Source: a virus
Length of the DNA stretch: 64,000 nucleotides
Reading direction: 5' to 3' (one strand)
Virus record (IMG/VR): IMGVR_UViG_3300021091_000014
Span: 64,001 to 128,000 of that record
Shown: positions 25,971 to 39,628 of the stretch, piece by piece
How positions within the stretch are numbered: the stretch's first letter is position 1
Layout of the letters: every line of letters starts with the position of its first letter
Notes under the pieces: model-generated
Told to the model about the DNA's origin: nothing
Seen by the model: the letters and a program-made list of their open reading frames with translations, nothing else
The model's database searches: none
Made by a program: the position numbers and the translations under genes

Positions 25971-27596
25971 ATGCCAGCTAATACCCAATATTTCAGAGTA
26001 GAGTACGGATTAGATGTTAATCTAGATGCCGTTATAGGAAAAGAACTATCTGTAACTAATACAGCTTCTTTTGGTAATAATGTAACTATTCAAGGCGATC
26101 TAGTAGTTAATGGTCAAACAACCTTTAACGACTCCCAATTAGTTGAACTTGGTACCGGACAGGTAGTTTTTGTTTCAGGTGCTCAGGGAGCTCCATCTAC
26201 AGATGCAAGATTAACTGTCAACAGAGGTGCAAGCGCTAATGTAGAAATAAGATGGAATGAGACTCTTGACACATGGCAATTTACAAATAATGGAACTAAT
26301 TACTACCCATTAAAATCTTACTCTGATTTAACTTATCAGTTTAGCACCCTTAACTCAACCAATGTTGATCCAGGATCCGGACTATTAAGATTTAATAACG
26401 GCACCCCCTCTCTAGTTACTCAAATTTCTATTGATAATACTGAGCTTGGAGGAACTGATGTTTCTGCATATATTGATTCTTTAGATGACAGCAACAATAC
26501 AGTAAAAGGATTTTTACTTTTTAGAAGCTCTGTTAATCAAGATCGATTTATTGTATATGAACTTAATTCAATAACTACCCAGACAGGGTATCGTCAGTTT
26601 TCAGTAACACATGTTTCTGGTAGCACATTGTTTACTAATGATGATGTTTTATTTTTAAGCTTTCTTCGTTCAGGAGATAAAGGTGATAAAGGTGAAAAGG
26701 GTGAAAAAGGTCAGAAAGGTGAAAGGGTAAGCTCGGGTAATTTTGATAGCGGCACCAACTCTTTACTATTTACTAATTCTGACGGATCTACTTTTACAGT
26801 GGCAGGTATAAAAGGTGATAAGGGTTCTTCAGGAGAAAAAGGTAATAAAGGCGATACAGGTGCTCAAGGCATTGGGGGTCCAGGAGCACAAGGCGATTTA
26901 GGTCCCGGAGGGCCTCAAGGTAATAAAGGCGATACAGGTGCTAAAGGTGAACCAGGAGGTCCAGGTGGTCCAGGTGTTGCAGGGCCTCAAGGGAATTTGG
27001 GCGCTCAAGGTCTTAAGGGAGATGTCGGCCCTCAAGGTTCTAAGGGAGATAAGGGAGATAAAGGTGCACAAGGCGGACCAGGTCCTGCAGGTCCTCAGGG
27101 ATCTGGCGGTGATAAAGGTAATAACGGTGCTCAAGGGCAACCCGGCCCGGCCGGTACTGTAATTGACTCATCTAGTGATTTAAATATTAGATCTTTAAGA
27201 GTTAATACAGGTGCAGTTTCAATCAATGCAGGAGAAATATTAGCAGCTGGTGATATTACAGCATTCTATTCAGACTTAAGACTTAAAAAGAATATTGAAG
27301 AAATAAAAGATGCCACAAAAAAATTATTAATGCTAACCGGAGTTTATTACTCCCAGAACGAATTAGCAGAAAAGTTTGGTTATAACGACTACAGAAGACA
27401 ACTTGGACTAATAGCTCAAGAAGTACAAAAAATATGCCCTGAAGCTGTTAGACTAGCACCATTTGATTTAGATGAAAACGGAATAAGCAAATCCGGAGAA
27501 AACTATCTTACTATTAAATACGAGAGATTGATTCCTCTTCTCATTCAGTCTATAAAAGAAATTGATAAAAGGGTTAGTGATTTAGAAAATAAGTGA
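25971..27596 (+). CDS. Collagen-like fibre protein (Pro- and Lys-containing Gly-X-Y) with S74 chaperone
   Basis: GDK/GEK/GPQ/GGP triplets at about 26670-27155; YSDLRLKKNI...GLIAQEVQ. Confidence 0.85.
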   Translation: MPANTQYFRVEYGLDVNLDAVIGKELSVTNTASFGNNVTIQGDLVVNGQTTFNDSQLVELGTGQVVFVSGAQGAPSTDARLTVNRGASANVEIRWNETLDTWQFTNNGTNYYPLKSYSDLTYQFSTLNSTNVDPGSGLLRFNNGTPSLVTQISIDNTELGGTDVSAYIDSLDDSNNTVKGFLLFRSSVNQDRFIVYELNSITTQTGYRQFSVTHVSGSTLFTNDDVLFLSFLRSGDKGDKGEKGEKGQKGERVSSGNFDSGTNSLLFTNSDGSTFTVAGIKGDKGSSGEKGNKGDTGAQGIGGPGAQGDLGPGGPQGNKGDTGAKGEPGGPGGPGVAGPQGNLGAQGLKGDVGPQGSKGDKGDKGAQGGPGPAGPQGSGGDKGNNGAQGQPGPAGTVIDSSSDLNIRSLRVNTGAVSINAGEILAAGDITAFYSDLRLKKNIEEIKDATKKLLMLTGVYYSQNELAEKFGYNDYRRQLGLIAQEVQKICPEAVRLAPFDLDENGISKSGENYLTIKYERLIPLLIQSIKEIDKRVSDLENK

Positions 27597-27605
27597 AAGG
27601 TTATT

Positions 27606-36487: not shown

Positions 36488-39400
36488 ATGTCACAACTAT
36501 TAAGTAATATTCTTGCTTCTTCTTTTATAGGAGATAAGGGCACAAAAGGAGACACCGGATCAAAAGGTGATACTGGTGCTACTGGTGCCAAGGGCGATAC
36601 AGGAGCCAAAGGTGACCCAAGTGCTACCGGAGGATCTAATACTCAAATATTATTTAATGACAACGGAAACGCTAATGGTTCAGCTGCGCTCTCATTTAAT
36701 AAAACATCAAATACAATTACCGTTGGTGGTAGCATTCTACCTACAGCCAACAACACTTATGATCTAGGTTCGGCGACCAGCGTGTTCCGCGATCTTTATC
36801 TCAGCGGCAATTCAATCAAATTAGGCGGTGCCACTATCAATTCGACCGGCACCAGTGTTCAAATAAACGACATTATCGCAGAAAGAACCTATGGCAGCAA
36901 CAACAACGGTGATCCCATCATTATTATCAAAAATGCCGCCGCTGCAAATGGGTTGACCATCAATCCCAATGAATCGGGAAAGAACTTTCATTTTTTAGCC
37001 AATGGTAATTTACAGTTGCCTGTGGGCGGCGGCATCGTTGACAGTGCCGGCGCTAGTGTTTTGAGTGGTGGAACACCAGCTGGTGGAACACCAGGACCAC
37101 AGGGACCACAAGGAGAAACTGGTGCTGCAGGAACAGCCGGGGCCACAGGTCCTACTGGCGCCACTGGTGCCACTGGTGCCAAGGGCGATACAGGATCAAA
37201 AGGTGATAAGGGTGAAACAGGGCCTACCGGAGGATCAAATACTCAGGTTTTATTTAATGATAGTGGATCAGCTAACAGTTCGGCAGCACTAACCTTTAAT
37301 AAAACATCAAATACAATTACCGTTGGTGGTAGCATTCTACCTAATGCCAACGTAGCTTATGATTTAGGATCTAGTGATAATAGATTTAATGATTTATATC
37401 TTTCTGGTAACTCTATTGTAATAGGAGACTCAACTCTCTCTTCTAATAGTACCGCATTTGTATTACCAGAGAATACATATCTTGGTTCAGTATCAGCACT
37501 AGCTCCAAGAATATCAAACGTTCAAATTGCAAACTCCTCTTGGAGTGTTTTAGATGATGCAGCGCTTGATACTATCGGAGGCTATATTTTAATAAACGGA
37601 GCTGGATTTTTATCCGGTGTTAACGTTCTATTAGGTAATACCGTAGCTACATCTGTTACAAGAGTAAACTCTACTCAATTAAGAGTACAGGTACCAGCTC
37701 TAACATCAGGTTCATATTCGGTGTATGCTACGAACCCAGATGGAGGTCTTGCGATTGGATTAAACGCATTAGCTACTTCCAATACCCCTGTATGGTCTAC
37801 TGGTGCTACACTTACAGGTGGTGTTGCTCCGTTCAGTGTTGATATAAGTCTTGCGGCATCGGAAGGGTCCGATAGCATTTCCTACAGCAATGTTGGTGCA
37901 CTTCCATCAGGATTGACTCTTGCAGCAAACGGTCTTCTAACAGGCACATTAAATCCTAATGCTGATACAACATATAACTTTACCGTTAGAGCTACTGATG
38001 ATGAAGAACAGGATGCTGATAGAGTATTCAGTGTTACTATTTTATTACCTGTAACGTTTGCTGGAACGTACGCAGGAAATACTTTAAATGTTGGATTAGA
38101 TACTTATGGTATGGCTCACGGCTCAGGGATTCAAGCCGGTAATAACTTAGTCATAAGTACATCTCTTATAGCTTCCGGATGCACTTTTGGTCCAATAGGC
38201 CATTTTGCAACTATTGTAGCACATAACAAATACGGTAACGTAAACTGGTCCGTTTCAAATATTATTAATTACAATGATGGTATGGGTATATCTTCTACCT
38301 TCTACGGCATTGACAGTATGAGTCAATATTTTTCCTCTCAGAACCCTGAATATTATTTAACTACCAAAACATCTGTAGTAGATAATCAAGACAACGTTTA
38401 CTTTGCTTTTAATACTCAAAGTGAGACTGGGTCTAATAGTTCATTGTTTATTACAAAATATAACTTTTCCGGTCAACGCCAGTGGATTAATAGATTAAGA
38501 AATAATTATAGTAATTCTTTCCCAGTTGCTGCATCCATGGAGTTTAATAAAAATGGCGATCTATTTGTTTTAATGTATAGAAATACTCCATTAAAAAACT
38601 CAAATTTTAATTTAAATAACTATAATTCTTATGATCCGCATCTTCTTACAATTAATTCTACCTCAGGTAGCGTGATTGCTGATGTAGGTTTAAGTGCTCA
38701 TTTGCCGGTGCATATTAAGCTTATACCAAACACAAACAATATTGTTTTAACCGGTGGTAATTATACTTTTGCTGCAATTGCAGTTTCTAATACAATTAAC
38801 GTTAATGATTCTTCCGGGCTTATTGCTAGAAGATTTTCTTCTGCAATAAGTCCTGCTGTATTTGTTAATAGTGACATTCATTCGAATGGAGCTATTTCAG
38901 CATTAGGGCACTCAAGTAATGGCCAATATTTGAACATTACGACATGGGCTAATAGTAGTTTAAATAACGGCGGAACATACTCTTGGAATTCAGCGTTTGC
39001 TAATACAGATGCTAGCAGAAGATGGGTGCCAAGTACTATAAAGTATAAAGATAATTATCTTTACGTAGCTGCTACCGAAACAGGTACAGCAGGTCTAAGC
39101 GGCAGCGCAAAAGGTTACATTTTTAGATTGCATGCATCCAATGGAGCAATAGATTATCAAAGAGCTCTTTCTCAAAATAGCTCCTTTACATCATTCGTAA
39201 TCGGTGGGCTGGATCTTAAAGATGATAAGATGTACATAACAGGCACCATAGAAGAAGCTAATACTGCCGATGGTAGAGCCCCTAAAATGGTTAACCTTGT
39301 ATTGCCAGCTAACGGATATTCTAATTCTTCTAGCGCGGCTAACATTCAATATCAGATACCTGGTATTTACGGAAACAATAAAATTGTTTACGCACAAAGT

Positions 39401-39628
39401 GCACTAGCTCTTTATACTAGCGGCAATTCATTTAACTTTGGTGATGCATGCTCAGGCATCGGATACATATCCTCTGCATCAAATAACATGTTAAGTAATA
39501 CTACAGCTAATAATGTATATGATTTACTGGCTAATACTGTTCATTACGATGGTGATTCTTCCGGAGGATATTATAGAGCAGCTAAAATAACTAATACTTC
39601 TAGCAACACCGTAATGCTCAGTTTTTAA
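36488..39628 (+). CDS. Fibre/adhesin protein with short collagen tracts, duplicated module, IPT/TIG and Ig-like domains, and beta-rich C-terminus
   Basis: GxK triplets; twice GGSNTQ.LFND...ILP.AN..YDLGS; NG.GF..G..V...TNPDG; LPSGLTL...G.L.GT. Confidence 0.75.
36570..37410 (+). repeat. Intragenic duplication with 600-bp period
   Basis: 49-bp identical core at 36695-36743 and 37295-37343, with similar flanks. Confidence 0.85.

Follow-up and report, generated by a model that had tools for sequence, protein, structure and literature searches.

A putative collagen-fibre maturation module with PLOD- and COLGALT-type domains in an uncultured T4-like phage

We describe a group of collagen-repeat fibre genes, together with two putative collagen-modifying enzymes encoded among them, in the genome of a virus recorded in IMG/VR. 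The window, that is the whole stretch of 64,000 nucleotides that was analysed, corresponds to bases 64001-128000 of a 156,637-bp virus record (IMGVR_UViG_3300021091_000014) with an estimated completeness of 91%. Its genes lie nearly all on the + strand and form a T4-like structural module, in which baseplate wedge, gp8-like and DUF4815 proteins are encoded upstream and the proteins of neck, tail and capsid further downstream. Identity of the major capsid protein with its counterparts in Stenotrophomonas phage DLP_6, Methylophilales phage Melnitz, Pelagibacter phage HTVC008M and several cyanomyoviruses is 62-68%, and a megablast search of window positions 27000-36000 against cultured phages gave no match at the DNA level. 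We conclude that the phage is an uncultured marine-type T4-like myovirus with no close relative in culture.

Four collagen-repeat genes had been proposed in the window, with starts at 9651, 25971, 33069 and 36488, and all of them are present there on the + strand. Each passes the cut-off of PF01391 Collagen (27.2 bits) and matches PHROG tail-fibre families, and the Gly-X-Y tracts run uninterrupted for up to 39 triplets. The longest fibre (33069-36473, 1134 aa; 259 bits over 7 stretches) carries 186 triplets in 10 tracts, among which Gly-Asp-Lys is dominant: Lys occupies Y 86 times and X never, Asp fills 84 of the X positions and Thr 58 of the Y positions, while Pro occurs only 4 times. Appreciable Pro is confined to the 541-aa tail fibre at 25971-27596 (48.8 bits), whose 45 triplets contain Pro 8 times at X and 5 times at Y, and Lys 16 times at Y and 0 times at X. 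This protein and a short fibre protein of 315 aa at 9651-10598 (47 bits; 29 triplets, Lys 13 times at Y and 0 at X) both end in a Peptidase_S74 intramolecular chaperone typical of phage fibres, scoring 68 bits in the shorter one. The fourth gene (36488-39628, 1046 aa; 34.1 bits) has two short collagen tracts, with Lys at Y in 8 of 27 triplets and at X in none, alongside TIG and He_PIG immunoglobulin-like domains; the large C-terminal region of its product matched no family. The original prediction that Lys sits in the Y position therefore turned out to be right and even understated, as in the 287 triplets of the four proteins Lys is found 123 times at Y and not once at X.

A single open reading frame (ORF) of 670 aa (31030-33042, +) ends 26 nt before the longest collagen gene. 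It had been described as a GT25 domain, a PLOD-type glycosyltransferase (GT) and a lysyl hydroxylase (LH) joined in one chain, and our searches recovered all three. The first domain (residues 1-235; 31030-31734) resembles the catalytic domain of COLGALT1. Residues 1-174 match PF01755 Glyco_transf_25 with 61.5 bits against a cut-off of 24, COLGALT1 is the sole PDB sequence match when the domain is searched alone (E 1.6e-15), and Foldseek places it on the COLGALT1 structure 9evj with a root-mean-square deviation (rmsd) of ~3 Å. The stretch 'lilEDD' aligns with 'lvfEDD' of COLGALT1, and E93-D94-D95 are invariant; here and below, invariance was read from 23 diverse family members with 38-65% identity. 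We take the EDD motif to be the essential catalytic motif of COLGALT1.

The second domain (residues 239-475; 31744-32454) is a PLOD-type GT similar to the glucosyltransferase domain of human LH3 and to mimivirus R699. Residues 243-474 align with positions 3-238 of the 246 in the GT_PLOD profile (PF25342; 195.1 bits, E 1.4e-57, cut-off 27), the score in a whole-genome profile search being 198.8 bits. Foldseek superposes the domain on the LH3 glucosyltransferase domain (6wfv) with a TM of 0.88, an rmsd of 2.0 Å and 31% identity, and R699 was also matched. The LH3 residues that bind Mn2+, UDP or Fe2+, or are required for activity, have been defined by structure and mutagenesis (PMC6082870). Invariant residues of the phage GT domain correspond to those of LH3 as follows: W280 to W75, D314 to D112, D317 to D115, W347 to W145, D391-D392 to D190-D191 and H454 to H253, with Y316 (Y114) nearly invariant. 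The full signature of the domain is thus in place, namely the non-canonical DxxD plus His for Mn2+, the Trp/Tyr stacking on UDP, the gating Trp and the Asp pair D190/D191.

The third domain (residues 495-670 plus the stop codon; 32512-33042) is a lysyl-hydroxylase-like 2-oxoglutarate (2OG)-Fe(II) oxygenase. When it is searched alone, the only PDB sequence matches at E<1e-3 are mimivirus L230 (2e-8) and human LH3 (1e-7). It superposes on L230 (6ax7) with a TM of 0.76 and an rmsd of 2.2 Å, and it is nearer to the lysyl hydroxylases than to other oxygenases (Foldseek E 2e-11 to L230 versus ~1e-7). Y584, H595-x-D597 (H595-H-D597) and H644 are invariant and correspond to Y656, H667/D669 and H719 of LH3, i.e. 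to the iron ligands and the Tyr of the 2OG pocket.

Compared by sequence with all solved structures, the whole enzyme matched LH3 (E 2e-38), R699 (1.4e-27), COLGALT1 (~7e-15) and the hydroxylase domain of L230 (2e-7). An AlphaFold model built on 23 homologues has a mean pLDDT of 89.8 and a pTM of 0.48, which leaves the packing of the domains uncertain; the structural matches were made domain by domain (rmsd 2.0-3.2 Å). NCBIfam has no model for the three-domain enzyme. Its layout departs from the full-length PLOD architecture (GT, accessory, LH), as there is no accessory domain, the linker between GT and LH measures only ~20 residues of low pLDDT (476-494), and a GT25 domain stands at the N-terminus. 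It departs equally from the two-domain COLGALT architecture, of which the catalytic GT25 alone is present, matching residues ~300-500 of the COLGALT1 chain. Judged by sequence, the three domains are true homologues of experimentally characterised collagen enzymes, and the predicted architecture is neither PLOD nor COLGALT but one in which the catalytic domains of the two are fused. As human LH3 and COLGALT1 act as a complex (PDB 8zgc), the phage fusion reads like a Rosetta-stone link.

Relatives of the enzyme are numerous. A word-index search gave 231 clusters at 90% identity (E<=1e-10), most of them with the same length and domain set, and an exhaustive search gave 216 clusters at 50% identity (E<=1e-30). 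An alignment-based scan of IMG/VR found at least 168 loci, unlike a query with a single protein, which returned no related IMG/VR loci. Among 50,697 cultured-phage records there were only 11 carriers, at ~37% identity over the full length: Synechococcus phages S-PRM1, S-CAM9 and S-8S53/55/56, a single-cell marine virus and Roseobacter phage CRP-6. In the cultured-phage records the homologues appear as hypothetical proteins or 2OG-Fe(II) oxygenases, and metagenome sources name the family 'GR25 family glycosyltransferase involved in LPS biosynthesis' (LPS, lipopolysaccharide). These searches define a distinct predicted enzyme family, widespread in marine and freshwater phages.

Gene neighbourhoods were examined in 84 loci, comprising 80 fetched from the 168 in IMG/VR as well as S-PRM1, S-CAM9, S-8S55 and CRP-6. 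The enzyme ORF was placed by local tblastn, and a collagen ORF was defined as one with at least 45 residues in runs of at least 6 Gly-X-Y. Homologues commonly lacking a collagen neighbour, which the original prediction had named as evidence against itself, were not found for the three-domain enzyme: in 51 of the 52 informative loci, those with at least 3.5 kb of upstream DNA, a same-strand collagen ORF lies at -3.5 to +0.6 kb, compared with 10/56 (18%) for distal windows of the same size placed 4-8 kb away in the same loci. In each of the four cultured phages examined, a gene for a collagen-repeat 'tail fibre' precedes the enzyme by 0.4-1.6 kb in the same orientation. Of the loci lacking a nearby collagen, nearly every one is on a contig that ends within 2 kb of the enzyme gene, and real exceptions are few. 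Two of them are not decisive, as the contig of L033 covers only 3.4 kb before the enzyme gene and 0.6 kb after it, and that of L054 stops 39 bp past the gene. The reverse link is rare, with the enzyme found in 0 of 80 randomly fetched viral collagen loci.

The linkage extends over cyanomyoviruses of 140-175 kb, the 45 kb phage CRP-6, freshwater contigs and a Streptomyces chromosome. Since the 84 loci form 42, 25 and 13 clusters at 90, 70 and 55% enzyme identity, respectively, the association spans many lineages and several types of genome. The bacterial case, in Streptomyces kronopolitis (NZ_BMND01000001.1; L211, 6990-10606), is an unfused version of the module: a collagen-repeat ORF is followed 350 bp on by a GT_PLOD+hydroxylase protein of 478 aa, a small IS4/5-like ORF and a separate GT25.

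The composition of the linked collagens follows the same line. X-Lys-Gly is the sequence acted on by collagen lysyl hydroxylases. In the 67 loci with a nearby collagen (9,813 triplets), Lys was counted 1,956 times at Y and 0 times at X. As a control we used 72 viral collagens without the enzyme nearby, taking the best ORF per locus (4,328 triplets), and in these Lys was found 65 times at X and 185 times at Y. Any Lys at X was present in 12 of 19 controls with at least 5 Lys versus 0 of 22 linked clusters. A proposed check, whether PLOD-like genes co-occur with Gly-X-Lys-rich collagens, thus came out in favour of the idea, the mean share of Lys at Y being 25% in linked collagens against 6% in controls. 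Low guanine-cytosine (GC) content as the cause of the enrichment was rejected, as the difference is kept when 22 dereplicated clusters are compared with controls of GC <0.40 (Mann-Whitney p 5e-7; for any Lys at X, Fisher p 6e-4). The control counts could also have been inflated by antisense or wrong-frame ORFs; a recount limited to the best ORF of each locus made little difference.

Could the position of Lys be purely structural, arising from Lys-Gly-Asp/Glu salt bridges in Pro-free helices, with the fibres unmodified and the enzymes irrelevant or decaying? Host-guest peptide work has found that the Gly-Asp-Lys arrangement forms favourable interchain ion pairs, and the main collagen of the window is dominated by exactly this triplet. 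Arg, the other basic residue, is however spread evenly in the same 9,813 linked triplets (X 54, Y 56), and the controls place a quarter of their Lys at X. Further to that, Lys is confined to Y not only in Asp-rich, Pro-free collagens but also in Pro-rich, Asp-poor ones (clusters with Pro at 30-50% of X positions), so simple Lys-Asp ion pairing is insufficient as an explanation. The catalytic residues are invariant down to 38% identity with the window protein, which argues that the enzyme is under selection. We regard a purely structural origin as the least probable of the explanations considered here.

The second enzyme of the locus is a small 2OG-Fe(II) oxygenase of 189 aa (27606-28175, +). 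It had been noted as lying directly after the Pro-containing collagen, and it does, its start being 9 nt past the stop of the 25971 gene. It belongs to the prolyl-hydroxylase/PKHD fold class (PF13640 2OG-FeII_Oxy_3, 54.9 bits, cut-off 27). H104, D106, H166 and R176 are invariant in 19 homologues, giving the HxD...H set and the basic 2OG-binding residue. The model has a pLDDT of 89.7, and its closest folds are PKHD/PiuC, PHD, bacterial prolyl 4-hydroxylase (P4H) and PBCV-1 vCPH, with a TM of ~0.6.

Homologues of this protein (33-51% identity) were found in 42 of the 84 loci, and 26 times one begins no more than 150 bp past a collagen ORF. All 26 of these collagens have at least 15% Pro-containing triplets. 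Put differently, a small oxygenase directly follows 26 of 59 Pro-containing collagens versus 0 of 33 Pro-poor ones (Fisher p 1e-6, with related loci counted separately). L007 and L008, whose three-domain enzymes are 57% identical to that of the window, repeat its division of labour, as collagens rich in Lys and free of Pro flank the three-domain enzyme, and the small oxygenase follows a collagen with 19% Pro at Y. In most linked collagens Pro stands at X, unlike the Y position used by animal P4H. From the fold class and the association with Pro content, it is reasonable, if a weaker step than for the larger enzyme, to regard the small oxygenase as a candidate collagen prolyl hydroxylase. Outside the window, at 12678-15815 of its own genome, the phage carries a cluster of three further small 2OG-Fe(II) oxygenase genes, which resembles the tandem dioxygenase arrays of cyanophage Syn9.

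A possible source of sugar donors is also encoded by the phage. Outside the window, at 49238-50203 of its own genome, lies a GalE equivalog (UDP-glucose 4-epimerase; TIGR01179, 270 bits versus a cut-off of 262) that slightly overlaps a gene for a GT4-like glycosyltransferase (49238-51194 for the pair). GalE may supply the glycosylation of fibres or another glycan pathway. In S-PRM1 and S-8S55, too, sugar epimerases are encoded downstream of the enzyme, at a distance of 3.4-7 kb. These genes fit a need for UDP-galactose (UDP-Gal), though they are not specific to it.

Taken together, the comparative data support a role of the two enzymes in fibre modification, in which the larger one probably acts on newly made fibre chains in the cytoplasm, hydroxylating Lys at Y and then attaching one or two hexoses, and the small oxygenase probably hydroxylates Pro of the Pro-containing fibre. 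Several observations weigh against this reading. Lys at Y together with Asp or Glu at X gives stabilising salt bridges, which could explain part of the Lys pattern. The 2OG oxygenase domain (residues 583-661) scores 25.1 bits, just under the Pfam cut-off of 27, and the Arg that binds 2OG (R729 in LH3, Arg also in L230) is replaced by K654 throughout the phage family. In the locus L034, no collagen lies in the 3 kb before the enzyme gene or in the 5.7 kb after it; a small-oxygenase array occupies the upstream 3 kb there, as it does in L033. A freshwater lineage (L016-L019, L021 and L023-L028) has an adjacent collagen with only ~5% Lys at Y, and none at X. Outside phages, 55 genomes of Actinomycetota (L214-L268) carry a stand-alone relative of the hydroxylase domain, 256 aa long and 30-50% identical. 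Finally, kinship among the loci means that our p-values overstate independence.

Some of these points would fit an enzyme that modifies collagen fibres with a chemistry other than that of the animal pathway, for instance by placing a single sugar on hydroxylysine (Hyl), by using other sugars, by glycosylating Thr at Y, or with a hydroxylase domain that lacks activity or targets a different residue. Mutation of R729 abolishes the LH activity of LH3 (PMC6082870), and the change from Arg to Lys at the 2OG site could make the phage enzyme altered or weaker. K654 is still basic, and the function may thereby be kept. Lys serves as the 2OG binder in some other oxygenases. Many linked collagens have Thr as their most frequent residue at Y, and in the 33069 fibre it takes up 58 of 186 Y positions; some linked collagens contain few Lys, and alignments do not reveal donor-sugar specificity. 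Mimivirus, moreover, is cited as using Glc-Hyl, not Glc-Gal-Hyl (Luther 2011, as cited). At the same time, all three sets of catalytic residues are invariant, which argues that all domains are active, in no lineage does Lys occur at X, which points to Lys being the residue that matters, and the presence of GalE fits a galactose step. On balance a different chemistry is unlikely, although it is the alternative that we take most seriously. The freshwater lineage may differ in main substrate or in chemistry. Its adjacent collagens have Gln at ~45-75% of Y positions, and a second collagen is found 2.7 kb downstream.

It could also be argued that the target of the enzyme is not collagen at all but the LPS or envelope of the host, a different phage protein or some small molecule, and that its place next to collagen genes reflects only a shared variable fibre region. 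GT25 is annotated as a family of LPS glycosyltransferases and public records label the homologues accordingly, the phage GalE stands beside a GT4 glycosyltransferase, and marine phages are rich in 2OG oxygenases lacking an assigned substrate (PMC2938197). The stand-alone Actinomycetota relatives are relevant here too, as none of them in the 55 genomes has a collagen gene within 8 kb. They are common in freshwater Actinomycetota (Ilumatobacteraceae, Acidimicrobiia), and because of them the hydroxylase-domain family as a whole is not collagen-specific; in L250 the relative (7743-8513) adjoins a YkuD L,D-transpeptidase with a peptidoglycan-binding domain and a beta-galactosidase. A shared fibre region is difficult to reconcile with the 18% of distal windows of the same regions that contain collagen, and with linkage being kept in unrelated types of genome. 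Further to that, the composition of the collagen shifts with the presence of the enzyme, Lys at X being gone, and among solved structures the domains match, by sequence, only collagen enzymes. A target other than collagen is, in our view, very unlikely.

Returning to fibre modification as the preferred reading, we propose that the locus would act as a maturation module for virion fibres. Late in infection, several trimeric fibres with collagen triple-helix shafts, rich in Gly-X-Lys and poor in Pro, would be produced, with the 33069 collagen most likely being the main substrate. While the chains are still unfolded, Lys at Y would be hydroxylated by the C-terminal domain of the enzyme with the use of Fe2+, 2-oxoglutarate and O2. 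The N-terminal GT25 would then add a first hexose to the new hydroxyl, by homology to COLGALT1 galactose from UDP-Gal, which the phage GalE could supply, and the middle PLOD-type GT a second, by homology to LH3 and R699 glucose from UDP-Glc. The small oxygenase would separately hydroxylate Pro in the collagen that precedes its gene. The predicted products are hydroxylated, O-glycosylated collagen fibres, and the likely benefit would be stability and hydration of triple helices that contain little Pro, while a coat of sugars could affect adhesion or protease resistance. What the comparisons show is that the domains are homologous, that their catalytic residues are conserved, that the genes are linked to collagens and that Lys and Pro follow the rules of composition given above; substrate, order of steps, identity of the sugars and benefit to the phage are what we infer from them, the sugars being carried over from the homologues. 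In its strongest form, the proposal is that a complete animal-type pathway (Lys to Hyl to Gal-Hyl to Glc-Gal-Hyl) is contained in one soluble polypeptide that works in the bacterial cytoplasm and decorates the fibres of a large, widespread group of marine and freshwater phages. We consider this form a real but still doubtful possibility, falling a little short of an even chance.

Several other features of the window concern the expression or the composition of the fibre region. The TATAAATA motif, the core of the T4 late promoter, stands 22-38 nt upstream of several structural genes and on the + strand only, at 28189-28196 (before the 28220 gene), 39640, 45932, 52268 and 53282; these are consensus matches only, and the motif showed no over-representation across the whole window. 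A sigma-70-like match (TTGACG, 17 nt, TATAAT; 11/12) at 30805-30833 falls in the 205-nt gap before the enzyme gene, again as a consensus match only, and the enzyme might be expressed earlier than the fibres. The gene at 28220-28543 (+) codes for a small protein of 107 aa resembling tail fibre assembly proteins (phrog_1084, E 8e-30; phrog_3304, L-shaped tail fibre assembly, E 1e-24). It is followed at 28812-30824 (+) by a fibre-like protein of 670 aa that has no collagen repeats and matched no Pfam or PHROG family. By eye only, 28812-28930 and 33069-33200 seem to encode a common N-terminal segment, 'Q(I/L)KRS...GELA', which could be a shared attachment domain.

An identical block of 55 bp is found in two collagen genes 24 kb apart (10095-10149 and 34347-34401), suggesting that collagen tracts have recently recombined or undergone gene conversion with each other. 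In the 33069 protein, a globular insert between collagen tracts (residues 283-385; 33915-34223) has a His...Cys-x2-His-x2-Met pattern ('GHPFWI ...') that resembles a type-1 copper site. We did not retain the idea of a cupredoxin, as Pfam gave no match for the insert and the PDB matches were non-significant (nitrite reductase extension, E 0.35; rusticyanin, E 0.7).

The hydroxylation and glycosylation of collagen Lys are known from animals and mimivirus (PMC9546862, PMC12279948). A 2022 review regards the collagens of phages as short motifs of capsids and states that those of prokaryotes mostly lack both modifications (PMC8968730). Iyer et al. 2010 predicted that bacterial 2OG dioxygenases encoded beside collagen-like and tail-collar genes hydroxylate those proteins, and noted tandem dioxygenase arrays in cyanophages, for which roles in secondary metabolism were proposed (PMC2938197). 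Their enzymes belong to other families, and neither a PLOD/COLGALT-type enzyme nor glycosylation of Hyl is described there. In the Baltic virome, P4H and galE are among the most abundant viral auxiliary genes, and the use of viral P4H 'remains cryptic' (PMC9301287). We found no description of a phage PLOD/COLGALT-type enzyme in the literature searched, the coverage of which was incomplete; a 2026 paper on LH in the Journal of Biological Chemistry does not mention phages, bacteria or viruses.

If the proposal holds, it would challenge the view of bacterial and phage collagens as unmodified, and that of Hyl glycosylation as an animal trait with mimivirus as the sole viral exception (PMC8968730, PMC12279948). 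A large phage family would be concerned (at least 168 IMG/VR loci and at least 216 clusters at 50% identity, including cultured Synechococcus and Roseobacter phages), and a function would be offered for proteins whose present labels are 'hypothetical', '2OG-Fe(II) oxygenase' or 'LPS glycosyltransferase'. An explanation would also be at hand for some of the many 2OG oxygenases of marine viromes, and possibly for galE. In the strongest form of the proposal, the P4H-like oxygenases and galE of Baltic Sea viromes would be, at least in part, genes for virion maturation. A compact enzyme free of a signal peptide could let Escherichia coli make hydroxylated, glycosylated recombinant collagen. The family further gives prokaryote-side relatives with which to consider the origin of metazoan collagen-modifying enzymes, and phage or bacterial versions may stand near the evolutionary root of the metazoan PLOD/COLGALT system.

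Among known systems, human LH3 (PLOD3) and COLGALT1 (PDB 6fxk, 8zgc, 9evj) share with the phage enzyme three homologous catalytic families, the same metal- and UDP-binding residues and, as presumed substrates, Lys at Y. The human machinery consists of two proteins in a complex, whereas the phage has its domains in one 670-aa chain in the order GT25, GT, LH, without the accessory domain that lies centrally in LH3 and the non-catalytic domain at the N-terminus of COLGALT1, and with the 2OG-binding Arg changed to Lys. It also lacks a signal peptide, which would place it in the bacterial cytoplasm as opposed to the endoplasmic reticulum of the human enzymes, and identity per domain is ~20-30%. With mimivirus L230 (lysyl hydroxylase and glucosyltransferase) and R699 (galactosylhydroxylysyl glucosyltransferase), a virus modifies Lys of its own collagen-like fibres, and both are among the best sequence and structure matches of the phage enzyme. 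Mimivirus differs in being a giant virus of amoebae with separate genes, and its L230 is reported to glucosylate Hyl directly; we know of no fused GT25 domain in it.

The small oxygenase shares its fold class and the HxD...H...R set with PBCV-1 vCPH, Bacillus anthracis P4H and PKHD/PiuC (TM ~0.6, identity 15-21%). B. anthracis P4H hydroxylates collagen-like peptides (PMC8968730), while the best sequence matches of the small oxygenase are PKHD/PiuC proteins without an identified protein substrate. As for the fibres, Scl1/2 and the prophage fibres of E. coli O157 resemble those of the phage in having Gly-X-Y tracts within trimeric fibres of the surface or tail, many of which end in a trimerisation or chaperone domain. 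The Scl1/2 and prophage collagens are, however, regarded as unmodified at Lys (PMC8968730), and our control viral collagens have far less Lys, a quarter of it at X. The chemistry and the domain families considered here are thus known ones, and what is new is the fused architecture, the host setting and the wide, unrecognised distribution.

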